Shown piece after piece: positions 3,245 to 19,285 of a stretch of 64,000 nt of DNA. The translations under genes were made by a program, and so were the position numbers. The stretch lies in contig CAVPLM010000005.1 in the NCBI GenBank assembly GCA_963706025.1, positions 448,001 through 512,000 on the forward strand. The letters run 5' to 3'. The notes beneath the pieces were generated by a model that was not told the DNA's origin, did no database searches, and was given only the letters and a program-made list of their open reading frames with translations. The stretch's first letter is position 1, and each line of letters begins with the position of its first letter. The stretch is from an uncultured Actinomycetes bacterium. Lineage in GTDB: Bacteria > Actinomycetota > Thermoleophilia > RBG-16-64-13.

Positions 3245-4645
3245 TCACCCGGCACTCTCCAGGACATCCAGCAGCTCTCTAGTCTTGAGCTCGAGCAGAT
3301 CCCTGTCCGCCCGGGTCTCGACGTTCAAGCGCACCACCGGCTCGGTATTGGACGGGCGGACGTTGAAGCGCCACGTTGGGTATTCGATGCTCAAGCCGTC
3401 CGTCTCGTCGACAGCCAAAGCCCCGGGCTCATACTTATCCCTGACCAAGGCAAGGGCCCTTGCCGGGTCCGCGATGGTCAGATTGATCTCTCCGCTGACA
3501 GGGTAGCGCGCGATCCCTTCCTCCATGAGTGCGGAAAGCGGCCGCCCCTCCTCGCTCAGCGCTTCCACCACCTGCAGCCAGGGGATCATGCCGCTGTCGC
3601 AATAGGAGAACTCCCGGAAGTAGTGATGGGCGGACATCTCCCCCCCATAGGCAGCGTCGACGGCCCGCATCTTCTCCTTGATGAAGGCATGCCCGCTCTT
3701 GGAGACCACCGCCCGCCCGCCCGCCGCTTCCACGAGATCGCGGGTGTTCCAGACCAGGCGGGGATCGTGGACGATGGCCGCCCCGGGATGGCGGCGGAGG
3801 GCGCGTTGGGCCAGCAGACCCACGAGGTAGTAGCCCTCGACGAACTCGCCTCGCTCGTCGAAGAAGAAGCAGCGGTCGAAGTCGCCGTCCCAGGCGATAC
3901 CAAGGTCCGCCTTCTCTGCCACCACCGCTTCGGCCGTTAAGGCCCGGTTCTCGGGCAGTAACGGGTTGGGAACGCCCAGGGGGAACGACCCGTCCGGCCG
4001 ATGGTTGATCTTGACGAAATCGAGGGGCAGGGACTGCTCCAACAGGTCCACGATCGGTCCGGCTCCGCCGTTTCCGGCGTTGACGACCACCTTCAGCGGC
4101 CGGAGCTTCGTCTCATCGACATAGGACAAGAGGTGCTCGACATAGCGCGATCGCACGTCGACCTGCGTGATGGCTCCCGGCCGCGTCGCTCCAGGTCCGG
4201 TCGGGGCCGAGGCCCCTTCTGCAGCCCGGCTGAGGGCACTCGCCACCATCGCCTCCATGTCGAGCAGCCCGGTATCGGCACTGATGGGTCTGGCCTGCGC
4301 ACGGGTGAACTTCATGCCATTGTAGTCACGGGGATTGTGGCTGGCTGTGACCATCACTCCGCCGTCGAGATCGAGGAAGAAGGTCGCGAAATAGACTTCC
4401 TCCGTGCCCACCAGGCCGATATCGACCACGTCGACTCCCGAGCCGGTGAGTCCCCTGCACAGCGCCTCGGTCAACGCCGGACTTGTGAGGCGGACATCGT
4501 GGCCGACGACGACCTTGCGTGCACCCACCAGGGCCGCGTATGCGCGCCCGATGAGCTCAGCCATCTCTTCGTTCAGTTGGTCGGGCACCCGGCCGCGTAC
4601 ATCGTAGGCTTTGAAGCACTCCAGGTGCGCCCCGTCATGCGCCAT
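3245..4645 (-). CDS. Phosphomannomutase/phosphoglucomutase
   Basis: FKAYDVRG, phosphoserine loop TASHNP, metal loop DGDFDR, GEMSAH and RPSNTEP motifs. Confidence 0.93.
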   Translation of the reverse strand: MAHDGAHLECFKAYDVRGRVPDQLNEEMAELIGRAYAALVGARKVVVGHDVRLTSPALTEALCRGLTGSGVDVVDIGLVGTEEVYFATFFLDLDGGVMVTASHNPRDYNGMKFTRAQARPISADTGLLDMEAMVASALSRAAEGASAPTGPGATRPGAITQVDVRSRYVEHLLSYVDETKLRPLKVVVNAGNGGAGPIVDLLEQSLPLDFVKINHRPDGSFPLGVPNPLLPENRALTAEAVVAEKADLGIAWDGDFDRCFFFDERGEFVEGYYLVGLLAQRALRRHPGAAIVHDPRLVWNTRDLVEAAGGRAVVSKSGHAFIKEKMRAVDAAYGGEMSAHHYFREFSYCDSGMIPWLQVVEALSEEGRPLSALMEEGIARYPVSGEINLTIADPARALALVRDKYEPGALAVDETDGLSIEYPTWRFNVRPSNTEPVVRLNVETRADRDLLELKTRELLDVLESAG

Positions 4646-4742
4646 CGGTGACCTCCCAGTATCTGGTGGGTATCCCCCGCTTCCGCGTCTCGAGACCCGG
4701 ACGGCCTCGAGCGGACGGGTCCCCCTCGGCGGCTGCCTCCCG

Positions 4743-4771
4743 TTGCATGGGGCAATTCATTCGCCTATACT
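4743..4771 (+). promoter_or_regulatory. Housekeeping-sigma promoter of tRNA-Asn
   Basis: TTGCAT-N17-TATACT, 15 nt upstream of the tRNA. Confidence 0.65.
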
Positions 4772-4786
4772 ACGCGAGGTTCCCGC

Positions 4787-4861
4787 TCCTCGGTAGCTCA
4801 ATGGTAGAGCACCTGGCTGTTAACCAGGGTGTTGCAGGTTCGAGTCCTGCCCGAGGAGCCA
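4787..4861 (+). tRNA. tRNA-Asn (GTT)
   Basis: Acceptor stem TCCTCGG/CCGAGGA, anticodon arm CCTGG-CT GTT AA-CCAGG, T-loop GTTCGAG, encoded CCA. Confidence 0.97.
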
Positions 4862-4888
4862 TTTATTTCCGGAAGGATAGCGGGCTGA

Positions 4889-5149
4889 TCACGCCGCTCG
4901 GATAAGGTCCCGGCCCGCTTTCGCCGACGGCTGGTCGCACGAAAAAGCGGCTATTTCGCAACCGCAGACCGGGCAGGTCAGGATACGGCTTTCCTCTGGA
5001 TAGGGCCGGCTCAGGCCCATCGTGCAAGAGGCACCGCCGCTTTCCATCGACTGCAATGCTGCTCCGCAACACACACATACCGATCCCGGGTGGAGATCGC
5101 ACACATACGCCCCTAGAGTGGGCGCTTCAACGACTCTGTTACCTTCCAT
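4889..5149 (-). CDS. Small Cys-rich putative zinc-ribbon protein, translationally coupled to lexA
   Basis: ATG overlaps the lexA TAA (TAATG), with SD GGAGG upstream. CVCCG and CPVCG knuckles; 86 aa. Confidence 0.6.
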   Translation of the reverse strand: MEGNRVVEAPTLGAYVCDLHPGSVCVCCGAALQSMESGGASCTMGLSRPYPEESRILTCPVCGCEIAAFSCDQPSAKAGRDLIRAA

Positions 5150-5767
5150 TAGAGCCTCCGGATCACTCCTGTGACCTTACCCACGATCCGCGGATCCCGG
5201 GTGAAGATCGGCTCCATCGAGTCGTTCTCGGGTTGAAGCCGAACGGTGTCGGACTCCCGGAAGAACCGCTTGAGGGTGGCTTCTTCATCCAGGACCGCCA
5301 CCACTATGTCACCGTCATCTGCGGTCTCCTGTCGTTTGACCACGACCAGGTCACCATCTAAGATGCCTGCCTTGATCATGGAGGTTCCCGTCACCCGTAG
5401 GGCGAAGCACTCCTGCGGTTCGCCCAGGAACGCCGGGATGGCGATCGCCTCCTCGATGTTCTCCTCCGCCAGCAACGGGACCCCAGCTGCGACCCGTCCT
5501 ACCAGGGGGATCAGCAGGGGATTCCGAACAGCGCGACGAGGCGACTGACCGCCCGCCGGCCGGATGACTTCGAGAGCCCGCCGCTTCGACGAGCCCCGGC
5601 GGATGTAACCCTTGGCTTCGAGTGAGGCAAGGTGACTTTGCACCGACGCCGGCGAGCACAGACCGACGGCGGCGCCGATCTCGCGCACAGTGGGCGGGTA
5701 CCCCTGCGCTCTGACCGCCTCCTCTATCACCTGCAGTATCTGCCTGCTGTCTTTCCGGCAGTTTCAT
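5149..5767 (-). CDS. lexA: SOS repressor LexA (+1 frameshift near 5743)
   Basis: YPPTVREIG HTH, Ala-Gly cleavage site VAAG, catalytic Ser (GTSM) and Lys (ATLK). The N-terminus MKLPERQ lies in the adjacent frame, from ATG 5767 with SD GAGGAG. Confidence 0.95.
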
Positions 5768-5782
5768 CGCCGTCTCCTCGGT

Positions 5783-5822
5783 GAACATTCGTTCGGTTGG
5801 GGGCAGTATAGAATATGTGTTC
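5783..5822. promoter_or_regulatory. Two LexA (SOS/Cheo) boxes overlapping the lexA promoter
   Basis: GAAC-ATTC-GTTC at 5783-5794 and GAAT-ATGT-GTTC at 5811-5822. The second lies in the spacer of the minus-strand promoter TTGCAG-N17-TATACT (5833-5805). Confidence 0.85.
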
Positions 5823-5841
5823 GGTCGCTGCAAGACTCCTG

Positions 5842-5870
5842 TTGACGCCCCCAGACGGGGGCCCTATACT
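5842..5870 (+). promoter_or_regulatory. Housekeeping-sigma promoter of tRNA-Leu
   Basis: TTGACG-N17-TATACT, 21 nt upstream of the tRNA. Confidence 0.75.
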
Positions 5871-5891
5871 CACCGCTGTTCGCAAGTCCAC

Positions 5892-5976: not shown

Positions 5977-6134
5977 CCTCTCTCCCCCTCTTTCGCGGTC
6001 GCGCGCTTCGCATCTGCTTGAACAAACCTGATCCAAGTGGTTGCATCGGCGGCTGAACGGGTAGTCTGCTAACGTTGCAGACAGGCAAGATCGGCGTGGA
6101 TTCGAGTCAACCTTTCGACGATCCGGAGGAAGAA

Positions 6135-8644
6135 ATGGTCAGAGGCCCCGCAGAACTCCGACCCGACGAGATATACCGGCTTTGCGACGGGTCGATCTTC
6201 CCGTTCGAGACCACAGCGGAATTGCCCGAGTTTGCCGACATCATCGGTCAGGCCCGCGCTGTATCCTCGGTGGAGTTCGGGATGGGGATCAGCAACGACG
6301 GCTACAACATCTTCGCCGTCGGTCCTGCAGGGACGGGGAAATCCAGCACTATCCTTGGCTTCCTGTCCCGAGAGGCGGCCTCTCTTCCGGCCCCCGATGA
6401 CTGGGTCTACGTCTACAACTTCGCCAAGCCGTATCAGCCGAATGCGATCCGGATGCCGGCCGGTCGGGGTGATGAGTTCCGCAAGGATATGGAGAAGCTG
6501 GTCGAGGATCTCCAGGCCGCAATCACCCAAGCCTTCGAGAGCGAGGAATACGAGAAGCAGAAGCGGGAGATCGCCCAGCAGGTCAGCGAGCGCCAGGAGA
6601 GCAAGCTGAGCGCGCTCAGCCAGAAGGCGGAGTCAGGACAGTTCCAGATGGTACGCACCCCCGCGGGCTTGGCCTTCGCTCCCAAGACCGCAGACAACGA
6701 GACCATGTCGCGAGAGGCGTATGAAGCCCTGCCCCCCGAGGAGCAGAAACGCATCGACGACGGCCTTGAAAGCTTGAACGAAGAACTGCAGCAGATAATG
6801 CGTCTCGTCCGGCAGGACGAGCGGGCCGGCCGGGAGTCCTGGCGAGAGCTCGACCGTCAGGTCACCACGTTCGCCGCAAAGCATCTTGTTGACGAGGCCT
6901 GCGAGCGCTGGTGTGACGTGCCCGAGATGGTGGACTATCTGCAGGGCGTCCTGCAAGACGTGGTGGAGAACGCCGACGACTTCAAGAAGTCGGACGACGA
7001 GACGCCGGTTATGTTCATGGGCATGCCCATCTCTCCACGCCAGAAGGGCGAGGGCGTCTTCCGCAAGTACAAGATCAACGTTCTGGTCGACAACTCGAAA
7101 CAGACCGGAGCTCCCGTCGTCAGCGAAAGCAACCCCTTGATGGGGAACTTGGTTGGCCGGATCGAGCATCAGGCGCAATTCGGCGCTCTGCTCACCGACT
7201 TCAGCATGATCAAACCTGGAGCCTTGCACAAGGCCAACGGTGGCTTTCTCGTGCTCGACGCCAGAGATGTCCTTATGAAGCCTTATGCGTGGGACGCCCT
7301 GAAGCGCACGCTCAAGACCTCCGAGATCCGGGTGGAGGATATCGCCCAGCAGATGGGCTTCGTCACCACCGCCACCCTTGATCCGGAACCCATCCCCTTC
7401 AAGGCCAAGATCGTGCTCATCGGGGAACCCTTCATCTACTACCTGCTTTACACACAGGACCCGGAATTCCAGGAATTGTTCAAAGTCAAAGCCGACTTCG
7501 ACACCGTCGTGGACCGAACCCCGGACAACGAGCAACTGTATGCCCGCTTCATAGGCCACCTCTGCCGGCAACGCGGTCTCCCCCCTTCTCTGCCGACGGA
7601 GTCGCCCGCGTGATCGAGCAGTGTTCCCGCTTGGTCGAAGACCAGCGCAAGATGACTACCCGGTTCGTCGATGTCGCCGACCTTCTCACAGAATCCGGGT
7701 ACTGGGCGGGAAAGGGACGCCGGGGGCGGGCAAGGCCTGTGGTTCTAGGAAAGCACGTCCAGAAAGCCATAGACCAGCGGGTCTACCGCTCCAACCGGGT
7801 GGAAGAGCGGGTGCGCGAGATGATCACCGAGGCGACCGTGATGGTCGACACTCGAGGTGCAGTGGTCGGCCAGATAAACGGGCTTTCGGTCTCGTCGATA
7901 GGAGACTACATGTTCGGGCGCCCCAGCCGCATTACCGCCACGCACCGCCTGGGGGATGGCGAACTGGTGGATATCGAGCGAGAGGTGGAGATGGGCGGTC
8001 CCATCCACTCCAAAGGGGTACTGATACTGGCGGGCTATCTGGGCGCCAAGTACGCCTCCGACCGGCCTCTCTCTCTGACGGCCCGGCTCGTGTTCGAGCA
8101 ATCCTACTCCGGAGTGGAAGGCGATAGCGCTTCGTCGGCCGAGTTGTATGCCCTGCTGTCCTCGCTCTCCGGCCTGCCCATCCAACAGCGTTTCGCTGTG
8201 ACCGGTTCGGTCAACCAGCGTGGGCAGGTGCAGGCAATCGGGGGTGTCAACGAGAAGATCGAGGGCTTCTTCGCAGTGTGCAAGGCTCTGGGTCTGAGGG
8301 GCGATGAAGGCGTTCTGATCCCGAAGTCCAACGTCCGCAACCTGATGTTGAGCGAATCGGTACGGCAGGCCGTGGAGAAGGGACGGTTCCACATCTACCC
8401 CATCACGAGCATCGACGAAGGGATCACCGTGTTGACCGGCCTTCCTGCCGGTGCACTCAGCGCAAAGGGAGCGTATCCGAGGGGATCGGTCAATCGCCTC
8501 GTGGTCGACCGCCTGGCCTTCCTCACCGAAAAGGCGCGAGAAGGAGAACGCAAGAAGGACAGAACCGGAGGACGGACCAGCGCGACTGGGGACGATGGAT
8601 CGCTCCGCCCAGCGCGGAATGAGGCGACCAAGACCTCATTCTGA
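6135..8644 (+). CDS. Lon-like (LonC/COG1067-type) AAA protease, frameshifted at a C-run (~7580)
   Basis: IIGQARA, GPAGTGKS and GALHKANGGFL in the first piece. The Lon protease domain (GQINGLS, Ser in EGDSAS, Lys in IGGVNEKIEGF) is in the second piece. Restoring one C joins the frames. Confidence 0.9.
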
Positions 8645-8679
8645 AACGAGTTCTAGGAAGCAGGTCGACGCCAGTTCGA

Positions 8680-8708
8680 GGTGTGAGGGGCGGCACGCCC
8701 CTCACACC
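8680..8708. terminator. Hairpin between convergent lon-like and fdhA-like genes
   Basis: GGTGTGAGGGGCG-GCA-CGCCCCTCACACC, a perfect 13-bp stem. Confidence 0.7.
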
Positions 8709-8722
8709 CAACCCTTCTACTC

Positions 8723-11420
8723 CTATACTCGCTCAATGCGGACCGCCGGAGTACCGGAGACCCCCCATTCGAAGAGACGGGCGGCCGGCGCCGTTGCAGA
8801 GAAGCCGGGTAGGAACACGACACCCGCCGGTACGCGTCCGGTGACCCAGGCCTCAAGCTCGATCGCCGCCTGATTGCGCCCGACGACCCTTACCCGGTCG
8901 CCGTCCGAGATACCGATGCTCGTCGCATCCGCGGGGTTGACCTCGAGTCTGGCCTCGTCGACCAAGCTGGTCAGCCCGGCCGAGCGGCGCGACCGCACAC
9001 CTGTTCCGTGGTGCTCGAGGACGCAACCAGTGAGCAGCACGAACCCATAGTCGGCATCGACCGCTGTTTCCGAGATGCCGCTTTCCACGGGCGCGAATAC
9101 GGCTTTGCCCCCGCGCGAACTCACTCACGTGCAGGACGGCAGTACCTGGGTGGTCCACTCCCGGGCAAGGCAGCTGCAGACCCTCGTCATCGAGACGGTC
9201 ATACGAGATGCCCTTGTAGCACCAGACCACGTCGGCGATCTCGCGCATCACGTCCGCGGGCTCTGCATAGGCCCAATCGCCACCAAGCCCTTTGGCCAAC
9301 CGCTGGATGATCTTCCAGTCGGGAAGCGCCTCCCCCAGTGGCGGAACCGCCGGCCGTACCCGCTGGACGAAACGCTCCACATTGGTGAAGGTGCCTTCAT
9401 CCTCACTGCTGACCACGGACGGCAGGACCACATCGGCGAACTTCGCGGTCTCTGTGAGGAAACTATCCTGCAAGACCACGCAATTCACCTTCGTCAAGGC
9501 CTGGCGAGTCCTGGCCTCGTCGGCGGCGGAGAGCGCCGGATCGGTCCCAACGACGTATAAGAAGCCGATCTCACCCTTTTCTGCGGCCTCGAGCACCTGG
9601 CTGGAGGTTCGACCGGGCACCGCAGCGGACAGGGTGGCACCCCAGGCCGCTTCCAACCTGGCGACAGCTTCGGGGTCGTTCGGTAGCGACCCTCCGGGGA
9701 GTCGGTCAGGGCGGAGGCCCATGTCGAACAGGCCCTGCGAGTTGGCGCCGGCACGCAGCGGGTAGACGCCGGTGCCCGGACGCCCGATGTTGCCGGTGAG
9801 GAGGGCCAGGTCGGTCACCGCCTTCACCGACGCTACTCCCGTTGAGCCGTGGGTCAGACCCGGTCCGAACAGGATAGCGGCAGCGGCGGCCTGGCCGTAG
9901 GCCGCGGCCGCCGCCCGCAGGACATCCGCATCTAGACCGCAGGCGGCGGCTTCGCCGGCTACGTCCACCTTCTCCAACGAAGCCAGAAAAGCGTCGAAAC
10001 CCTCCGTACGGTCCGCCACGAACTCCGCATCGTTGAGGCCGAGGTCGAGCAGGTGGCGCATCATCCCGCGAAGTAGCGCAAGATCCGTCCCCGGCTTGAT
10101 GGCCAGGTGATGCTTGGCCCGCCGGGCGAGCTCGGTGGTGCGCGGATCCACGACGATCACGGTCTTGCCCTTGCGCATCGCTCTGATCACATCGAGCGCA
10201 AGAACCGGGTCGGATTCGGTAAGGTTGGCGCCGATCACGAGGATCACGTCGGCCGCCCCCAGATCCTTGCGCGAATTGGTGGCGGGGGCCGCTCCGAAGG
10301 CGGCCGGGAGAGCTTCCTCGGAGGCAGCCTGCCAACCGTGGTCGATGGAATCGATGTTGTTCGAGCCCAGGAGTCCGCGTACCAGCTTCTGCAAGAGGTA
10401 GGCCGCTTCATTGGTGCAGTGTGTCCCACACACCGCCGCAATGGCTTGGCCCCCCTTCTCCTTCCGGACCGCCGCGGCCTTCTCGACCACCCGAGCCAGA
10501 GCTTCCTCCCACGAGGCCTCTTCCAGCTCTCCGGCAGCGCTCCTCACCAGAGGGGCAGTCAGCCGGTCGGGAGCGTCGGTGTAACCGATCCCGAAGCGCC
10601 CCTTCACGCACAGGTTGCCGGCGTTGAGGCCCTTCTCCAGTTCCGAGGCGACCCGGACCACCTTGTCCCGGTAGCTGTGCAGGACCAGACGGCAACCATT
10701 GCTGCAGTAAGAGCAGGTGGTGGCGGTCTTCGTAGTCTGCCACTCGCGCGCGCCCTGAGGAGTGCGCTGACCGATGACCGCCCCGACCGGACAGGTGCTC
10801 ACGCACTGTCCGCAGGAGACGCAACCCACTTGCTGCAAGGGGAGCCGATAGGCCGTGTCGACCTCGCTCTCGTAGCCGCGATTGAGATATCCCCAGCAGC
10901 CGATCGACATCACTTCGCGACAGATGCGTACGCATCGACCACACAGAATGCACCGGGCCCCGAAGTGAGCCACGTTCGGATGGTCGCCTGGATCGCCGGC
11001 CAGTGGTCCCCGCCAGCCCCATGGCACCATATCCACGAGATACTCGTAGGCATAGTCCTGTAGACGGCAGTCGCCGGCGGCCTCGCAGACGGGGCAATCG
11101 AGCGGATGGTTGGTCAGCAGTAGTTCCATCACGAACTTGCGCAGCTTGAGGATCTTCTCGCTGTGCGTCTCCACGACCATGCCTGCCCTGATCGCAGTCC
11201 CGCAGGCTGCCATGGGGCCGCGGGCGCCTTCCACCTCCACCAGGCACATACGGCAGGCGCCATAGGGCTCAAGACGGGGATCGTGGCACAGGGTGGGGAT
11301 GTCGACGCCTGCTTCGCGCGCCACCTCCAGGATGGTCTTGCCAGGGAGTGCCTGGATCTCCCGCCCGTTGAGGGTGAGAGTCACCGGTTGGGCCCCGGTC
11401 GGCTCGGCGGCGACGGACAT
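8723..11420 (-). CDS. FdhA/NuoG-like Fe-S subunit with a degenerate molybdopterin domain (+1 frameshift in a G-run ~9108)
   Basis: ATG 11420 overlaps the upstream TGA. Fe-S motifs CHDP..ACRMC..C, HPLDCPVC..C, CILCGRCVRIC, CVSCGQCVSTCP and CSYCSNGC..LCVKG. The Mo-bisPGD fold continues to the C-terminal barrel (VNPADA..I), but the catalytic C/U-H is absent. Confidence 0.85.
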
Positions 11421-13309
11421 CACGACCTCCTCACAGCGTCGAATCGGCACTTGTCGTAGCATTCTCCGCACTTGATGCAAAGCTCTTGATCGATCACGTG
11501 GATTTCCTTGCGCTCTCCGGTGATGGCCTGGACCGGGCAGACACGGATGCAGGCCCGGCACCCGGTGCAGGTCCCGGGGTCGATGGAGTAGGTGGTGAGG
11601 GCTTCGCAGGCCCCCGCCCTGCATTTGTGCTCGATCACGTGCTCCTCGAACTCCTCCCGGAAGTACTTCAGAGCAGTGAGGACCGGGTTCGGGGCCGTGG
11701 TGCCCAGTCCACACAGCGAGCCGGTCCGCACTTGCTGGGCCATCTCCTCAAGGAACGTCAGGTCGCCGAGCGTGCCCTTGCCCTCACAGACCTTGTCGAG
11801 CAGATCCAGCATGCGTTTGGTGCCGATCCGGCAGGGCGGGCACTTGCCGCAACTCTCGTGTTGGGTGAAACGCAGGAAATAGCGGGCGGTATCAACGATG
11901 CAGTTGTCCTCGTCGATGACGATCATTCCACCCGAGCCGACGATCGCACCGGTCTGGTTGATAGTCTCGTAGTCGACAGGAAGATCCAGGAGCGATTCGG
12001 GCAGACAGCCACCCGAGGGGCCTCCCATCTGCACCGCTTTGAAAGCCTTGTCGTTCTTGATTCCGCCCCCGATCCCGAAAATCACTTCCCGGAGGCTCTT
12101 TCCCATCGGGACCTCCGCCAGGCCGGTGCGGTTCACCTTGCCCGCCAGGGCGAAGACCTTGGTGCCTTTGGACTTCTCGTAGCCGCGGGAGGCAAAAGCC
12201 TCTGCTCCGTTCAGGATGATCCAGGGTACTACCGAGAGGGTCTCGACATTGTTTATGTTGGTCGGACGGCCCCACAGCCCCGATTCGGCCGGGTAGGGAG
12301 GGCGCAGGCGAGGCATCCCGCGCCTGCCCTCGATGGACTCCATCATAGCCGTCTCTTCGCCGCAGACGAAGGCCCCTGCACCTTCCTTGATCGTGACATG
12401 GAAGGAGAAGCCCGAGCCCATGATGTTGTCGCCGATGAGCCCCCGTTGCTCAGCCACTTGCACGCCGATCTTGAGACGTCTAAGAGCCAGGGGGTACTCT
12501 GCCCGCACATATACGTAGCCCAGGGGGGCTCCGATCGCATACGCACCGATGGCCATACCCTCGAACACCGCGTGCGGATCGCCTTCCAACACCGAGCAGT
12601 CCATGAAGGCGCCGGGGTCGCCTTCGTCGCCGTTGCAGATGAAGTACTTGATCCCGTCCGGCGACGAATAGCCCGCAGCGAACTGCCACTTCTGGCCGGT
12701 GGGGAAACCCGCGCCTCCACGACCTCGCAGCCCCGAGCGTTTGATCTCGTCGACGACCTCCTCGGGCGACATGCTGGAGAGGACCTTGTAGAGAGCCTGA
12801 TAGCCGTCGGCCTCCAAGTAGTCGTCGATGTCCTCGGGATCGATGATCCCCACGTGCCGCAGGGTGAGCTTCTCCTGCGCCTCGTAGAAGGAAGCGAACT
12901 CGGTCGGGCCATCATCGCTAAGCACCAGCCACTTCGCGATCGGCTCCCCGCCGATGATGTGCTTCGCGATGATCTCGTCCACCATGGCCGGCGTCACCTG
13001 ACCGTAGGTGACTTTGTGAGCAGATCCGTTGCGCCTGAGTATCACCTCCACCAGCGGGTCCATGGCGCAGAGACCCTGGCAACCGGTGCCCGTGATCGAG
13101 GCGCACTGCCCCCCGCACTCATCCTCGCGGGGACGGATCACTGCGTAGACCCCTGAGAGGGCGAGCTTCTTCTCGAAGGCCTTCAGTACCTCCCGGCTCC
13201 CCGCGGCGACGCCCCCGGTACCCAAGCAGATGCGCACTTCGACTTCGGGAACGCTCAGGCGGGGGTTGCGCGGCGCCGGTCTTTCCAAGACTCGCTCGGG
13301 AGCCATCAC
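11420..13309 (-). CDS. NuoF/HydB-like NADH- and FMN-binding subunit
   Basis: SGLRGRGGAGFPTG, NGDEGDPGAFMD, GAFVCGEET, GGPSGG and ESCGKCPPCRIG motifs; C-terminal 2x[4Fe-4S]. Confidence 0.95.
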   Translation of the reverse strand: MMAPERVLERPAPRNPRLSVPEVEVRICLGTGGVAAGSREVLKAFEKKLALSGVYAVIRPREDECGGQCASITGTGCQGLCAMDPLVEVILRRNGSAHKVTYGQVTPAMVDEIIAKHIIGGEPIAKWLVLSDDGPTEFASFYEAQEKLTLRHVGIIDPEDIDDYLEADGYQALYKVLSSMSPEEVVDEIKRSGLRGRGGAGFPTGQKWQFAAGYSSPDGIKYFICNGDEGDPGAFMDCSVLEGDPHAVFEGMAIGAYAIGAPLGYVYVRAEYPLALRRLKIGVQVAEQRGLIGDNIMGSGFSFHVTIKEGAGAFVCGEETAMMESIEGRRGMPRLRPPYPAESGLWGRPTNINNVETLSVVPWIILNGAEAFASRGYEKSKGTKVFALAGKVNRTGLAEVPMGKSLREVIFGIGGGIKNDKAFKAVQMGGPSGGCLPESLLDLPVDYETINQTGAIVGSGGMIVIDEDNCIVDTARYFLRFTQHESCGKCPPCRIGTKRMLDLLDKVCEGKGTLGDLTFLEEMAQQVRTGSLCGLGTTAPNPVLTALKYFREEFEEHVIEHKCRAGACEALTTYSIDPGTCTGCRACIRVCPVQAITGERKEIHVIDQELCIKCGECYDKCRFDAVRRS

Positions 13310-13857
13310 TCCTCACTCTCCTGCCCGCTCGCGGCAGGAGAACCGCCGTTCTCCCCCTCTACCTCCGCCTGGAAGGTCTTGACGACTTCCACCGCCTTAT
13401 CCGGGGTCAGCTTGCCGTGCGCCCGGTCGTTGATCATCACGACAGGAGCCATTCCGCAGGCACCCACGCAGTGCACCTCTTCGATCGTGTACAGCATGTC
13501 CGAGGTGTTCTCACCGGCATGGATGCCGAGATGCTTCTCGATCTCGCGCGAAATGAGCGGTGCGCCGGACACATGGCAGGCGGTGCCATGGCAGCAGCGG
13601 ATGGTGTTCTTGGCGTGGGGTTGCAGTCTGAACTGGGAGTAGAAGGTGGCCACGCCGAGAGCCTGGCTGAGGGGCTCGCCAGCCGTCTCGGCCACACGAG
13701 CCATCACCTCTTCCGGCAGGTAGCCGAAGATGGCCTGTGCTCCCTGTAGGAGAGGCACAAGTGCGCCCGGTTGTCCCTCGTAGTGATCGAGTAGCTCCCG
13801 AAACTGCTCTTCCAGCTCCGGCTCGATCGTTGTCCCAGCCACAGTCCCACTCGTCAT
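13306..13857 (-). CDS. NuoE/HydC-like [2Fe-2S] subunit
   Basis: GVATFYSQF, CHGTAC...CVGACGMAP; SD GGAGG. Confidence 0.95.
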   Translation of the reverse strand: MTSGTVAGTTIEPELEEQFRELLDHYEGQPGALVPLLQGAQAIFGYLPEEVMARVAETAGEPLSQALGVATFYSQFRLQPHAKNTIRCCHGTACHVSGAPLISREIEKHLGIHAGENTSDMLYTIEEVHCVGACGMAPVVMINDRAHGKLTPDKAVEVVKTFQAEVEGENGGSPAASGQESEE

Positions 13858-13994
13858 CGATATGGCCTCCGTAGGTCCGGGCTATTGTAGCTCGGCGTTT
13901 AGGACAGAATACAAGGATTTGTCGGTCGCCGCCCGCACCAGGCGCACCATACCCAAGGGGCCGTAGAGAGCGTCGGACCCGGCTGCGACCATGT

Positions 13995-14927
13995 TCAGGT
14001 TGTCCACTCCGACGAACACCGGTCCTTGATCACACCAGGAGTTCTAGCTTGGGCGAAGCTCTCGCCCGCTTGGAAAGAGCTGCGAACGAACGGCCCGGCC
14101 TGCACTCGAAGACCGAGAGCTTCGCCCCACTCCCGGTACCTTGCGAAGACCTCAGGGTGCACATACTCCACCACCGGGAGATGGCACGCCGAGGGCCGCA
14201 AATACTGCCCGATGGTCACCATGTGTACTCCGGCTTCCGCCACCTGACGCAGGAGATCGGCAATCTCCTCCTGCGTCTCACCCAACCCCACCATCCAGCC
14301 GGTCTTCACCACACTCTGTCGCACCAGGGCCGCCCGTCTCAGCACCATCAGGGAGCGCTCATACACTGCCTGTGGCCGAACGGTAAGGTACAGGCGGGGG
14401 ACGGTCTCGATATTGTGGTTGAAGACCTCTGGCGCTTCGGCCAACACCATGTCGAGATCCTCCATTCGACCGGCAAAATCAGGGACGAGCACTTCTAGGG
14501 TCACCCCGGGAGCTCTTGAACGGATGGCCCGCATGGTATCCACATAGTGTCCCGCCCCCCCATCTTTCAGATCGTCGCGAGTGACTGAGGTAACGACGGC
14601 GTGTAACAGTCCCAGGCGGCTCACAGCGTCGGCGACGTTCTTTGGTTCCAGGGGATCCAAAGTAGCCGGCCGTCCGGTGGCCACGCCGCAGAAGCCACAG
14701 TCACGAGTGCACACATCCCCCATGATGAGGAACGTGGCGGTGCCCGCCGCGAAACACTCGCCCAGATTGGGGCAGAGAGCGCTCTCGCAGACAGTGTGCA
14801 AGTGCCTGTCGCGGAGCAAGGTCTCCATTCTCCGCAGGGCGCCGGACTCGGGCAGTGGCTTCTTGAGCCAATCCGGCTTTCGACTCGGCCGGTCGTCCCT
14901 GCTGTCAAACACCGTGCGCTCGTTCAC
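13995..14927 (-). CDS. lipA: Lipoyl synthase
   Basis: RKPDWLK, CX4CX5C (CESALCPNLGEC), radical-SAM CTRDCGFC, IGQYLRP and VRSS. GTG start overlaps the larC stop (GTGA). Confidence 0.93.
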   Translation of the reverse strand: MNERTVFDSRDDRPSRKPDWLKKPLPESGALRRMETLLRDRHLHTVCESALCPNLGECFAAGTATFLIMGDVCTRDCGFCGVATGRPATLDPLEPKNVADAVSRLGLLHAVVTSVTRDDLKDGGAGHYVDTMRAIRSRAPGVTLEVLVPDFAGRMEDLDMVLAEAPEVFNHNIETVPRLYLTVRPQAVYERSLMVLRRAALVRQSVVKTGWMVGLGETQEEIADLLRQVAEAGVHMVTIGQYLRPSACHLPVVEYVHPEVFARYREWGEALGLRVQAGPFVRSSFQAGESFAQARTPGVIKDRCSSEWTT

Positions 14928-16189
14928 GAGATCGAGACACCGTGTTCGAGCCGTGCGGCCGCGGCCTCGGTCGCCAGCTGCATCACGACCCTCAAAGGCA
15001 GGCCGGCCGCCGTCGCTGCGCCGGCCGCGTCTTCGTACTCCGGCGCGACACTCACCAGACGGTCGCGCCACCGGCCCCATTTCACCCTCACCTCGCGACC
15101 CGCTACCTCGACGGTCACCGTTCCCCGTGTGGCCAGCCAGCGCGAGGCCGGCTGCCGGCGGACGCCCAGCGTCCCCGTCTGTCCAAGCAGGAGTTCCACC
15201 GCGGCGGGCTCAGCGTCAGGGCGGACGAGGGCATGAACGACCACCCCTGGGCGGTCCTTCTTCATCTGAGCGGCCACGGTCCACACGTCCAGCGCTCCTG
15301 TTTCGCGCAGCAGGCGACACGTGTAGCCGATCACCTCCGGCGAGACATCGTCGAGGTTGGTCTGCAGTTCGACGACCGTATCCAGTCCCTCCTCGCCAGC
15401 GAGGGATGCACCCCGACCCTCCCACGAGCGCCCCAACAGGACCCTCAGAATATTGGGACCGTTATCCAGCTTCATACTCCCGGCGCCGTGCCCCACCTTT
15501 TCGATCTCCATCGGGGGCAGCGGGCCGGGCACAGCTCCCAGTTGACTCACCAGCAGAGCCCCCGTGGGTGTGGTCAGCTCCCGCATCTCAGGGCCTCCCA
15601 CTATCGGATAGCCTTTGAGAAGAAGGGCAGTCGCGGGCGCGGGCACACCCATCCGTCCGTGTGCGATCTCGACGGTGCCGCCTCCCACCGGGATCGGGCC
15701 CACCATGACCTTGTCGACCCCGAAGGCCTCTACCAGCACGAAGGCCCCGACCACATCGACCAGGGTATCCACTGCCCCCACCTCGTGGAAATGGATCTCC
15801 TCCACCGGACAGCCATGGACCTCGGCTTCCACCGCCGCCAGCCGCCGGACCGCAGCTAGGCTGTGAGAGCGCACCCATGCCGACAGAGACGAATCCTCGA
15901 TGATGTGTTCCATGTCGGCCAGGTGCCTGAGGGGAGCGTTCTCGGCAGCGCGTACCCGCACCCGCGTGCACGAAACGCCCCACTCCACGTCGCGTACGAT
16001 TTCCACCATGGAGTCATCCAGGTTCAAGGCGGCCAGGGCCCTCCGCAGGTCGGCTTCGAGCTTACCGCCGGCTTGATCGGTGCTCAGCAGCGCGCCCAGG
16101 AGCATGTCCCCGGACACTCCGGCCCACGGATCCAAATAGAGCAGCGTCCGGTCGATCGCCGTCGCCCCACCACCCGAGTGATCCGCCAT
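14924..16189 (-). CDS. larC: Nickel-pincer cofactor nickel insertase LarC
   Basis: GVSGDMLLGAL, HFHEVGAVD, PVPAPAT, ELTTPTGA, MKKDRPG and PEYED motifs; SD AAGGAG before ATG 16189. Confidence 0.92.
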   Translation of the reverse strand: MADHSGGGATAIDRTLLYLDPWAGVSGDMLLGALLSTDQAGGKLEADLRRALAALNLDDSMVEIVRDVEWGVSCTRVRVRAAENAPLRHLADMEHIIEDSSLSAWVRSHSLAAVRRLAAVEAEVHGCPVEEIHFHEVGAVDTLVDVVGAFVLVEAFGVDKVMVGPIPVGGGTVEIAHGRMGVPAPATALLLKGYPIVGGPEMRELTTPTGALLVSQLGAVPGPLPPMEIEKVGHGAGSMKLDNGPNILRVLLGRSWEGRGASLAGEEGLDTVVELQTNLDDVSPEVIGYTCRLLRETGALDVWTVAAQMKKDRPGVVVHALVRPDAEPAAVELLLGQTGTLGVRRQPASRWLATRGTVTVEVAGREVRVKWGRWRDRLVSVAPEYEDAAGAATAAGLPLRVVMQLATEAAAARLEHGVSIS

Positions 16190-17086: not shown

Positions 17087-17711
17087 CGCCGATAACCCCT
17101 TCTTCCCTCAGACGCGCGAGGAGAGCTCTCGCAGCCGCCCCTCGATGCGAGACGCTGTCCTTGTCCGCAGGGTCGGCCTCGGAGAGAGTCTCCGCCCATC
17201 CGAGTGGTTCGAAGATCGGATCGTACCCGAAGCCATCGCTACCACGGGGGGAGAGTGTGATGGTCCCCTCCAGCAGTCCCTCTGCTGCGGAAACCCGCGG
17301 AGTCGAGCCGGGACCGGGCTGGAGGGGCGGAAGGATGAGACACAGTGCGCACACGAAGCGCGCGGTCCGGTCCTCATGCCCGGACAACTCCGCCAGAAGC
17401 TTCCGTACGTTGTCTTCGTCAGAGGCATGATCGCCGGCGTAGCGGGCGGACCGTACCCCTGGACTGCCGTGTAGCGCCGCCACCTGTAGTCCGGAGTCGT
17501 CCGCCAACACGCCTGTTTCACCCCCGAGGGCGGCGAAGACCGTGGTGGCTTTCAGCCGGGCGTTCTCGGCGAAAGTCTCTCCGGTCTCCTCGGGTAGGGG
17601 GATCCCCGCAGGCACTGTACGCAAGTCGAAAACACCCTCCAGCAGACGCGCGAACTCTCGGGCTTTTCCCGGGTTGCGCGTCGCGAGGACTACCTTGGGA
17701 GGGGCGGTCAC
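17076..17711 (-). CDS. rdgB: Non-canonical purine NTP pyrophosphatase (dITP/XTP)
   Basis: ATRNPGK, ADDSGL, PGVRSAR, GFGYDPIF and SHR motifs; follows rph. Confidence 0.93.
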   Translation of the reverse strand: MTAPPKVVLATRNPGKAREFARLLEGVFDLRTVPAGIPLPEETGETFAENARLKATTVFAALGGETGVLADDSGLQVAALHGSPGVRSARYAGDHASDEDNVRKLLAELSGHEDRTARFVCALCLILPPLQPGPGSTPRVSAAEGLLEGTITLSPRGSDGFGYDPIFEPLGWAETLSEADPADKDSVSHRGAAARALLARLREEGVIGDGS

Positions 17712-18472
17712 GGCCGGGACATGCTCCCGGTTCCGCCGGTGTATGCCTGGGCGACCACTTCCATCTGAGCCGCCTTGATCTCGGCGATGCCCTTCTGAGC
17801 CAGGTCGAGCAGTTCGTCGAGCACGTGCCGCTCGAACGGATCGGTCTCCGCGGTCGCCTGGACTTCGATCAAACGCCCGTTCCCGGTCATCACGACGTTC
17901 ATGTCCACCTGGGCGACGCAGTCCTCTTCATACTCCAGGTCCACCACCGGCATCCCCCCGACCACACCCACGCTCACAGCGGCTACGGAATCGTTCAGAG
18001 GCAGTGACCGGAACAGCTTGTTGTCCACCGCTCGCTTCAGAGCCAGATGAAGGGCGATGTAGCCCCCACTCACGGCCGCACAGCGGGTGCCACCGTCGGC
18101 TTCCACCACGTCGCAGTCGACATACACCGTGCGCTCGCCGAGGGCCGCAAGCTCGACCACAGTGCGCAGGCTCCGTCCGATGAACCGCTGGATCTCGATT
18201 GTCCGCCCCCCTTGCTTGCCTCGGACCGCTTCCCGCGGAGTACGCTCCCGAGTGGAACTGGGCAGTAGGGAGTACTCGGCCGTGACCCATCCTGCGCCGC
18301 TTCCTCGTCGCCAACCGGGGACACCGTTGACCACCTGGGCCGTGCAGAGAACACGCGTGCCGCCTAGCTCCAGAAACACCGACCCATCGGCCGTGCGCAC
18401 GAAGTCCGGGGTGATCTTCAGGCTCCGCATCTCAGCGGGACCCCGCGTGCCGGCTCCACTTCTTCCGCTCAT
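17708..18472 (-). CDS. rph: Ribonuclease PH
   Basis: GWVTAEYSLLP, GRTIEIQRFIGRSLR, ADGGTR and EVQATAE. Own ATG at 18472 with SD GAGGTG; wrongly fused to murI in the ORF track. Confidence 0.93.
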   Translation of the reverse strand: MSGRSGAGTRGPAEMRSLKITPDFVRTADGSVFLELGGTRVLCTAQVVNGVPGWRRGSGAGWVTAEYSLLPSSTRERTPREAVRGKQGGRTIEIQRFIGRSLRTVVELAALGERTVYVDCDVVEADGGTRCAAVSGGYIALHLALKRAVDNKLFRSLPLNDSVAAVSVGVVGGMPVVDLEYEEDCVAQVDMNVVMTGNGRLIEVQATAETDPFERHVLDELLDLAQKGIAEIKAAQMEVVAQAYTGGTGSMSRP

Positions 18473-19285
18473 ATCTGGGTCACCTCTCGGATAGGCAGTT
18501 GGAGGAAGCGCATGCCCACTTCCCTGAACTCCTCGCTGTCCCCGGTCGAGAAGAACTCGATAGGCGCCTTCCCGCCGAGGGCCGTTACCGATTGCTTTGC
18601 GCTCCAGAAGCTCCCGGACCTCCCTGGCAGTCTCCTCGGCGGAATCGATCAGGGCGACCTCGGGACCCAACAACCGGCGGAGCATCGGCGTTATCAGGGG
18701 GTAATGGGTGCATCCCAGGATGACCGTGTCGACCTCGGCCTCTTTGAGGGGAGCCACGCATCCGCGGGCGGCCTGCTCCGTCTGTTCTGAGAACACGTCG
18801 CCTTCCTGGATAAGGGGAGCCAGGCGTGGACACGCGACCGGGAACACCTCCACCCCGGCATCGAGCGTGTGGAGGGCGTGCTGGTAGGCGTTTGAGCGCA
18901 CCGTAGCTTCCGTGGCCAGCAGCCCCACCCGCCGGTTCCGCGTCTCCTGGGCTGCCGCGCGGGCTCCCGGCATCACGACCCCGACGATAGGCGTGGAATA
19001 GGCGGTCTGCAGTTGGGAGAGCGCCGCGGCCGCGGCGGAGTTGCAGGCGACGACAACCAGCTTGACCCCTCTTGCCACCAGGAAGCCCACGGCGGCAAAG
19101 GCCAAATGACGAACTTCGGCCAGAGACTTCGAACCGTAGGGGAAATTGCCCGTATCGCCCAGGTAGACGAAATCCTCATGAGGCAGGTTCACCAGACATT
19201 CGTGCAAGACCGTGAGGCCGCCGACCCCAGAATCGAAGACTCCAACGGCACGTGTGTCGGGGATGGGCGCGTCTGGTGCAGTCAT
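18469..19285 (-). CDS. murI: Glutamate racemase (+1 frameshift near 18560)
   Basis: FDSGVGG, ACNS and LGCTHYP. The shifted frame gives the typical C-terminus EFFSTGDSEEFREVGMRFLQLPIREVTQI*, whose TGA overlaps the rph ATG. Confidence 0.92.

Follow-up and report, generated by a model that had tools for sequence, protein, structure and literature searches.

A three-gene operon in the 64,000-nt stretch of DNA analyzed here (the window; contig CAVPLM010000005.1 of assembly GCA_963706025.1, an uncultured Actinomycetes bacterium) very probably encodes a fossil formate dehydrogenase (FDH): its large A subunit would be the descendant of a selenocysteine (Sec) FDH that has lost its metal site and is still under selection. 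Beside it lie a NuoF-like B subunit and a NuoE-like C subunit, and the motifs of the three indicate a soluble three-subunit Fe-S flavoprotein of the Bfu (HydABC/NfnABC) type. All coordinates are positions in the window unless a locus is named, and the trimer genes all lie on the minus strand:

11423 down to 8723, minus strand: BfuA/FdhA-like (A) subunit, with PF13510, PF10588, PF22117, PF04879, PF00384 and PF01568
11420-13309, minus strand: BfuB/NuoF-HydB-like flavin mononucleotide (FMN)/NADH (B) subunit, ~628 aa, with PF01512, PF10589 and two Fer4 domains
13306-13857, minus strand: BfuC/NuoE-like thioredoxin-like [2Fe-2S] (C) subunit, 183 aa, with PF01257 (E 4.2e-46)
10329-10334, minus strand: Trp-Gln (TGG CAG, with TGG at 10332-10334) in the place of Sec/Cys-His, from the codons and the FdsA alignment
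9023-9025, minus strand: TGC (Cys) replacing the TGR-motif Arg of live relatives, in a segment that reads TGCVLEHH

The earlier note had read Trp-Gln where FDHs carry a Cys/Sec-His pair, and the codons and the alignment agree. The codons AAC AAC ATC GAT TCC ATC GAC CAC GGT TGG CAG GCT GCC TCC encode NNIDSIDHGWQAAS, whose Trp-Gln pairs ungapped with the Cys-His of CARVCHSPT in R. capsulatus FdsA (phmmer, 6tg9_A, E 1.8e-151); the same Trp also aligns to the TGA of Sec-type orthologs. In FdsA the Mo is ligated by Cys386, and the active site also includes His387 and Arg587 (PMC7171172). Over 8900-10500 we compared the window with Logan contigs from three DNA runs, which come from three independent metagenome studies, and from one RNA run; TGG and CAG were identical in the contigs of all three DNA runs. 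The note had asked for the TGG to be confirmed in raw reads; these contigs keep it and show neither TGA nor TGC-CAC. Its other readings of the subunit also stood: TGC was found at the TGR motif, five Fe-S motifs are present, and the Arg of PLR is retained (YPLRAG).

Set beside known FDHs, the subunit has Trp for the Sec/Cys ligand of Mo/W and Gln for the adjacent His; the active-site Arg is retained in the window, but in 53% of the clade only, and the predicted model has the alpha-subunit fold. The cut-off of the Fdh-alpha model TIGR01591 (666.25) was missed by P0002, a complete homolog (898 aa, 87% identity to the window A subunit) scoring 582.5, and by the N-part of the window protein (515.2); the NCBIfam cut-offs for Fdh-alpha, NuoG and NuoF all went unreached. 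Together with the clade-wide degeneracy of the Cys/Sec, His and other columns and a Sec-FDH elsewhere in the genome, the missed TIGR01591 cut-off upholds the note's view that this is not a formate dehydrogenase. To judge by its residues, the A subunit most likely binds no Mo/W-bis(pyranopterin guanine dinucleotide) (bisPGD) and would turn over neither formate nor CO2.

The site is degenerate across a whole clade. Among the 120 best homologs (46-100% identity; source names Thermoleophilia, Gaiellales and Actinobacteria RBG_16_64_13), Cys-His occurred in P0118 and P0120 only, with P0119 out of frame, a count biased by gene callers ending Sec-type genes at TGA, which places them outside the searched lengths. 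The former Cys column holds W, E, D, N, G, K, R, Y and others, so the conservation of Trp-Gln that the note asked about holds in the four of four genomes of the window's genus and gives way to variation across the clade. In the wider family (153 rows, 50%-identity representatives), 48 rows carry Cys-His and 6 have gaps; loss of the cofactor site is therefore common in nature for such an architecture.

We compared columns between 36 Cys-His relatives and 103 clade members. Of the 133 columns conserved at at least 85% in the live group, 89 are kept in the clade, 39 are variable and five have switched. Every Fe-S Cys is kept, with Lys272 at 90%; for the cluster beside the dead site, the four Cys stand at 100% and the neighboring Lys at 90%. 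The losses comprise C362, H363, R360 (the Arg of CAR) and H403 (the His of GxNxxxxHP); G556, Q557, N558 and V560 of the GQNNVQG loop, where the active-site Arg, R555, is kept in 53%; K673, R683 and R798 (the TGR Arg, a column with Ser in 61% and Arg in 2% of the clade); and, at the C-terminus, H872, N879, T882, K888 and a conserved Asp column gapped in P0002. Many of the lost residues are basic, and we take this as the probable loss of a site for a pyrophosphate-bearing cofactor. No Cys beyond residue 275 is conserved in more than 73% of the clade, and the other Cys that the note would have accepted as a refutation, one placed at the metal site, did not emerge as a conserved sequence column. 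DPR, PGTD, GTFTN.ER and Lys272 are kept.

We then typed the site across the order, which comprises 61 genomes in one family and 19 genera. A match at E <= 1e-60 was found in 60 of the 61, and 55 could be typed (54 fetched stretches and the window's own genome; G004, G019, G020, G028, G038 and G052 are untyped). Forty-two typed genomes, from 14 genera, have the dead site; 12, from genera g4, g11, g12, g13 and g19, have TGA(Sec)-His in the form NNxDHCARL-TGA-HSSTVAGL; and one (G024) has Cys-His. The lost ligand described in the earlier note is thus real and, being old and present in 42 of 55 typed genomes, no peculiarity of the window genome. The lipA-nuoE-nuoF-fdhA order is common to Sec-type and dead-type loci, and Sec-type orthologs share 51-55% identity (A) and ~70% (B) with those of the window. 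The four Sec-type genes viewed in full also carry PLRGQxNVQG, TGRELVHYH and GSNTTEAHP. In a tree of 61 rows with 10 Cys-His outgroup rows (IQ-TREE quick search, midpoint root for drawing), the Sec group (97 in the Shimodaira-Hasegawa-like approximate likelihood-ratio test) and the 47 dead rows taken together (99) are sister groups, which requires no more than a single loss. The first dead subclade to branch, which we call early-dead, still reads GAR; the branch to the main dead clade is 0.51 long. Synteny, identity and tree together indicate that the A subunit descends directly from the Sec-FDH of the same locus, its ligand having been lost in the ancestor of most genera. The Cys-His version, from a Sec-type genus, reads HCTRLCHAPS (L131, G024:C106:9198-11798), and a second FDH-like match with TGA lies ~2.5 kb downstream of it on C106.

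The locus also preserves traces of its former pathway. Acetyl-CoA synthase (ACS, PF03598) is present in 37 of the 61 genomes, including 13 of the 13 live-typed ones, in eight of which the trimer contig also carries it, ~10-11 kb away; in early-dead G017 and G021, too, its distance from the trimer is ~10 kb. Nineteen of the 42 dead-typed genomes have ACS, far from the trimer wherever the two share a contig, and the other 23, among them the 92%-complete window genome, gave no match at E <= 1e-20. From this pattern of proximity, the ancestral gene was therefore the FDH of the Wood-Ljungdahl cluster, and the trimer outlived its own active site and, in many genomes, the Wood-Ljungdahl pathway. Upstream of one dead trimer lie genes of the CdhD family (corrinoid Fe-S protein) and for a pterin-binding methyltransferase (L035 3564-7517, Pfam); by open reading frame (ORF) cluster only, L045 shares the CdhD-family pair (3660-5889) and L041 the pterin-binding gene (815-1615). 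Such genes survive from the ancestral Wood-Ljungdahl cluster. In peat, RBG-16-64-13 and Chersky-299, genus names also found on L044 and L041, are listed among active catechin degraders (PMC12203004).

Loss of the site seems to have brought neither decay nor loss of the fold. Ratios of nonsynonymous to synonymous substitution (dN/dS; Nei-Gojobori, rough figures at the high dS of 0.5-2.5) between dead-type loci were 0.05-0.10 for NuoE, 0.03-0.07 for NuoF, 0.03-0.07 for the Fe-S part of the A subunit and 0.125-0.16 for its dead domain; the same domain gave 0.139-0.222 in Sec-type orthologs. For the NuoE-like gene of the window, comparison with close relatives gave 0.07-0.10. The dead-type A gene thus appears to have been kept intact under purifying selection since the loss. 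An AlphaFold2 model of P0002 (70-row alignment, no ligands) had a mean predicted local distance difference test score of 90.6, mostly >90 in the dead domain, and a predicted template modeling score of 0.90. Its top Foldseek hits were alpha subunits of NAD-dependent FDHs (9ktl_A, 7vw6_A, 8rqz_C and 6tg9_A; query-normalized TM-score (TMq) 0.84-0.87). FdhF (1fdi) aligned with an rmsd of 1.9, and TMq fell to 0.71 for NuoG and 0.63 for NfnA/StnC.

We next examined the B subunit, which the earlier note had likened to that of bifurcating HydABC. DEGDPGAFM, GAFVCGEET, GGPSGG, EEHVIEHKCRAGAC and two C-terminal CxxCxxCxxxCP motifs are present, so the residues claimed for it (DEGDPGAFM, GAFVCGEET, the EH..KC..C site and 2x[4Fe-4S]) were all recovered. 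Its best PDB matches were NfnB 9bov_B (E 3.5e-238), StnB 8oh5_B and NfnB 9n5u_B, with further matches to B of NiFe-Bfu (7t2r_B) and HydB (7q4v_B/8a6t_B/7p5h_B); non-bifurcating FdsB and NuoF scored far lower. A HydABC-like, bifurcating-type module is thereby supported at the level of motifs, with NfnB, StnB and HydB as the best PDB relatives. By the motif definitions of the Bfu family (PMC12018979, PMC9304861), the B subunit has the FMN/NADH site, B1, AFM, GGPSG, the B2 His/Cys, B3/B4 and an N-terminal B5 domain whose ligation is uncertain (its Cys pattern is NfnB-like); a NuoE-like BfuC adjoins it, and the BfuA has [2Fe-2S] and [4Fe-4S] domains. Ten motif stretches (the N-terminal Cys, DEGDPGAFM, GAFVCGEET, GGPSGG, the B1 Cys, EEH..KC..GAC and both CxxCxxCxxxCP among them) have a near-identical consensus in 31 dead-type and four Sec-type orthologs, and three, including DEGDPGAFM and GAFVCGEET, are invariant in the dead-type rows. 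For the third substrate of a Bfu enzyme, the pterin site is dead, and no GltD domain, H-cluster or extra subunit was found in the operon or its neighborhood.

The three genes are coupled by overlapping stop and start codons, as the note had stated for both junctions: the NuoE-like stop overlaps the NuoF-like start (...GAGTGATGG... at 13306-13310), and the NuoF-like stop overlaps the FdhA-like start (...TCGTGATGTCC... at 11420-11425). The NuoF-like product has a thioredoxin-like domain at its N-terminus and a 2x[4Fe-4S] domain at its C-terminus; the FdhA-like product, ~898 aa without the assembly frameshift, has five Fe-S motifs followed by the dead Mo/W-bisPGD domain. Directly upstream of the trimer lies a true lipA, itself preceded by larC, and the lipA-NuoE spacer holds a putative promoter, TTGTAT...TACAAT:

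13858-13994, minus strand: spacer between lipA and the NuoE-like gene, 137 bases, holding TTGTAT...TACAAT, by direct reading

A Pfam scan of the window ORFs found no nuo, hydrogenase, GltD, fdhD or molybdenum cofactor (Moco) genes, in agreement with the note's statement that none is adjacent; the remainder of the window consists of housekeeping genes.

The reading frame of the A gene is broken near a G run:

9108-9112, minus strand: G5 run where the frame shifts, an assembly indel, from the frame break and the DNA-run contigs

The note had flagged this frameshift, and the break is present in the window; it is an assembly error, not a pseudogene, because the contigs of three of three DNA runs miss one base there. 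The missing letter maps to 9115, three bases off the G5 run, and the exact base is not assignable. With one G removed, the window protein reads ...EFARGKAVFAPVE, where P0002 has ...EFSRGKAVFAPVE. Contigs of the RNA run (X19, a metatranscriptome) cover just 8900-8990, 9732-9882 and 9934-10077, and DNA carry-over is possible. Elsewhere in the window, nadE (glutamine-dependent NAD synthetase) is split at 1469-2972 (one 589-aa gene in relatives), a Lon-like protease gene is split at 6075-8644 (one 842-aa gene in relatives), and murI and the RNase PH gene, separate in relatives, are fused at 17708-19285; these splits and the fusion suggest an indel-prone (long-read) assembly. P0004, another long-contig relative, is truncated as well, but at a different place.

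The window genome (3.66 Mb, 30 contigs, 92% complete, 7% contamination) holds 53 PF00384 matches, and the organism therefore makes Moco; the absence of adjacent Moco genes was accordingly rejected as an argument. The matches, unusually many for 3.7 Mb, include a tandem of ~7 genes of ~880 aa (C17:25657-50002). A Sec (TGA) FDH lies elsewhere, at 1.135 Mb on C5 (L101, G000:C5:1126001-1146000, ~8295-11723). It is apparently GltD-linked, with a GltD-like N-terminal part and a GltD-like ORF just upstream; nearby are metF, a gene resembling pterin-binding methyltransferases and a fragment of a NiFe-hydrogenase large subunit. The genome has four NuoF-like genes: that of the trimer, one in a WOR-type Bfu cluster and two in [FeFe]-hydrogenase clusters. 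The WOR-type cluster (L094, G000:C5:964001-984000, ~8211-13366) comprises an aldehyde:ferredoxin oxidoreductase (AOR) gene followed by NuoE-like, BfuB-like (627 aa) and small BfuA-like (254 aa) genes. The two [FeFe]-hydrogenase clusters share one locus (L093, G000:C10:75001-95000); in one, NuoF is short (396 aa) and lacks extra clusters, whereas the other has a NuoF-GltD fusion (1036 aa), and between them lie a HydS-like sensory hydrogenase-histidine kinase fusion and response regulators.

The sole NuoD belongs to a nuo operon on contig C3 (NuoB, C, D, J/K, L and M by Pfam), and no nuoEFG was found within the 20 kb examined around it. That locus (L092, G000:C3:531001-551000, ~7337-16071) has a 347-aa ORF between NuoD and J/K and a seemingly fused J-K (433 aa). 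Rnf (PF03116) gave no match in the 92%-complete genome. PF14691/PF07992 (GltD-like) gave no hit in the A subunit, and the genome's six Fer4_20 hits are located elsewhere. The search for co-occurring partner genes that the earlier note had recommended turned up none beside the trimer in ~38 loci. These loci share a major facilitator superfamily gene, murI, rph, rdgB, larC, lipA, the trimer, lon, lexA, pgm and nadE, and the neighborhood was rejected as a guide to a partner. Co-occurrence with Nuo was rejected likewise, NuoD being present in 58 of 61 genomes regardless of site state.

In L013 and L045, whose A subunits are 78% and 66% identical to P0002, nuoE and nuoF are replaced:

L013 7327-9690 and L045 7628-9925: NfnA-like + NfnB-like pair, directly upstream of an intact dead FdhA-like gene

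The L013 pair matches 5jca_S (E 3.3e-96) and 4ylf_B (E 3.6e-186) and ends 16 bases before the intact dead A gene. The A subunit is retained though its partner subunits change.

How might such a complex work? We propose that NADH would react at the FMN of the B subunit and ferredoxin at its C-terminal 2x[4Fe-4S] domain. In the A subunit, the five clusters would form an electron wire on the scaffold of the dead domain. This wire would end at the [4Fe-4S] cluster that adjoins the former active site, where electrons could be exchanged with a third acceptor encoded outside the operon, either a protein partner or a small oxidant. The trimer is kept in the 23 of 42 dead-typed genomes that gave no ACS match, and the window genome has its own Sec-FDH; the trimer is independent of formate and of acetogenesis. 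That the A subunit serves as a wire to an external third partner is a tentative proposal, to which we give a little under an even chance; the explanation as a whole we consider evenly balanced, a grade set by its weaker, inferred part.

Several points weigh against this proposal. No candidate for the third partner was found, the 25-kb neighborhood being wholly syntenic housekeeping and uninformative. The organism makes Moco, and the absence of cofactor from the A subunit is inferred from sequence alone. Glu or Asp occupies the former Cys column in ~68% of the clade, where a carboxylate ligand is possible, with Trp in the window's genus. The homolog count carries the bias described above. Except for the counterparts of Cys386, His387, Arg587 and Val592 of FdsA, which are described in the literature (PMC7171172), the lost residues are ones that we take to contact bisPGD. 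There may also be purely structural reasons for the conservation seen in the Fe-S chain and the dead domain, as with cluster N7 and the C-terminal domain of NuoG. The oligomerizing FdhF-like domain of StnC is a structural precedent of this kind (PMC10482914).

Of the rival explanations, the one that survives best dispenses with a third partner: the trimer would be a plain, non-bifurcating ferredoxin:NAD+ (NADH:ferredoxin) oxidoreductase for redox balancing, with the A subunit kept for assembly, stability or oligomerization. The lack of a conserved extra gene beside the trimer in ~38 loci favors it, as do the missing Rnf, which would make another link between ferredoxin and NAD useful, and the tetramer contacts made by the inactive FdhF-like domain of StnC (PMC10482914). 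We nonetheless find it doubtful, though possible. Bfu cores are described as coupling NAD and ferredoxin to a third reaction (PMC12018979, PMC9304861), the cluster adjoining the dead site keeps its four Cys at 100% and the Lys beside it at 90%, the 650-residue domain is as constrained as the live one, and the A gene is kept next to NfnAB, which alone links NADPH, NAD and ferredoxin.

A further and more novel reading, which we regard as unlikely, sees a remodeled pocket with new, mostly charged residues under live-strength selection. The trimer would then be a new type of bifurcating enzyme, core to the order, and its third site would be either the old FDH pocket put to new use or a surface on which a partner encoded elsewhere docks. 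The main dead clade has gained conserved residues at D359, R383, R450, E489, H803, R808, F872 and R880, most of them charged. For the most part these gained columns probably reflect lineage, since the group they were compared with is much more diverse.

Quite improbable, in our judgment, is that the trimer serves, as a detached unit, as the NADH-input (N) module of the genome's 11-subunit Nuo, the FdhA-like subunit standing in for NuoG, itself a molybdopterin-fold protein without cofactor. The only NuoD lies in the C3 nuo operon, where the 20 kb examined gave no nuoEFG; NuoG chains were also among those matched by the A subunit (phmmer, Foldseek), and an 11-subunit Nuo with nuoEFG encoded elsewhere has already been proposed (PMC5736913). 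However, the A subunit is closer to FDHs in sequence (E 1e-151, versus 3.6e-70 with partial coverage for NuoG) and fold (TMq 0.84-0.87 versus 0.71), and its score of 393.8 against the NuoG model TIGR01973 is below the cut-off of 470.05. NuoD is present in 58 of 61 genomes, Sec-type and dead-type alike, and so does not discriminate, and the B subunit has the ferredoxin-type extra clusters of Bfu enzymes.

There is still less to suggest a molybdo- or tungsto-enzyme with an unusual protein ligand or none and a substrate other than formate, which we consider very unlikely. Precedents exist in arsenite oxidase, without a protein ligand, and in Nar, with an Asp ligand; the carboxylates in ~68% of the clade, the retention of DPR, PGTD, GTFTN.ER and Lys272 and the capacity of the organism to make Moco would fit. 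Yet the ligand column varies widely (W, E, D, N, G, K, R, Y...), with Trp in the window's own genus. Losses extend to the His and the GQNNVQG loop, to the TGR Arg and to the C-terminal H/N/T/D/K, with the active-site Arg at 53%. Finally, a decaying pseudogene, as the broken frame at ~9110 and the lost catalytic residues might suggest, is scarcely credible given that the extra base is missing in three of three DNA runs, that the nadE and lon splits and the murI-RNase PH fusion, intact in relatives, point to an indel-prone assembly, and that dN/dS is 0.13-0.16 with intact ~898-aa genes across 14 genera.

These findings bear on both annotation and enzyme evolution. Sources label clade members 'formate dehydrogenase alpha subunit' or 'formate dehydrogenase (NADP+)', a label that, in this widespread order, would falsely assign the oxidation of formate or reduction of CO2 to the locus; a separate Sec gene encodes the real FDH. 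Live Sec-type, early-dead and remodeled versions of one locus within one order form a natural before-and-after series, showing the passage from a Mo/W enzyme to an Fe-S scaffold, a step presumed for NuoG in complex I. A full Bfu core without a recognizable third site lends itself to testing how the BC module acts on its own and how it is rewired, a question sharpened by the swap of NuoEF for NfnAB beside the same dead subunit. If the pocket was in fact repurposed, an order of soil and sediment Actinomycetota would hold a new kind of electron-bifurcating enzyme. Seventeen BfuB clades have been described as without assigned function (PMC9304861). We found no literature on the actinobacterial clade; the main text of the same survey does not contain the word 'Actinobacteria', and its supplementary cluster tables may list the clade.

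The closest analogues of the window trimer are StnC/NfnA, SfrA and NuoG. NuoG/Nqo3 has the same N-terminal Fe-S domains followed by a cofactor-less molybdopterin fold, and serves as wire and scaffold. The window A subunit differs in lying outside a nuo operon, scoring below the TIGR01973 cut-off and having lost its site much more recently, with live orthologs remaining. StnABC/Nfn-Bfu (S. ovata 8oh5, C. saccharolyticus 9bov, T. sibiricus 9n5u) has, as in the window, subunits resembling NuoE and HydB, the latter with extra clusters, and StnC/NfnA resembles the window A subunit in joining NuoG-like Fe-S domains to a catalytically inactive FdhF-like domain. StnC has no formate activity (PMC7483475), and its FdhF-like domain is inactive (PMC10482914). 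StnC/NfnA, however, owes its third substrate to a GltD-like FAD/NADPH domain inserted in the protein. The window A subunit lacks the insert, and its dead domain is nearer to live FDHs (35% identity, TMq 0.85) than to NfnA/StnC (18%, 0.63).

The order's Sec-type orthologs correspond to Type 1 Fdh-Bfu, a class described with no member characterized at the time (PMC9304861). They occupy the same locus with the same three genes and the B motifs of the window; Type 1 enzymes have the pterin site in BfuA, whereas the window A subunit has lost the Sec, the His and other active-site columns. FdsABG of R. capsulatus (6tg9) provides the best full-length sequence and fold match of the window A subunit and shares NuoE/NuoF-type partners. 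FdsB lacks the extra B2-B5 clusters and is non-bifurcating (PMC9304861), and FdsA has Cys386, His387, Arg587 and bound bis(molybdopterin guanine dinucleotide) (PMC7171172) where the window A subunit has Trp-Gln in place of Cys-His. SfrAB of Geobacter sulfurreducens, cited as an NADPH:Fe3+ oxidoreductase (PMC7483475), pairs an FDH-alpha-like Fe-S subunit with an NAD(P)H flavoprotein, a likeness drawn from its description. L013 and L045 are SfrAB-like in that a GltD-like NfnB adjoins the dead A subunit, whereas the partner in the window is of the NuoE/NuoF type, not the GltD type.

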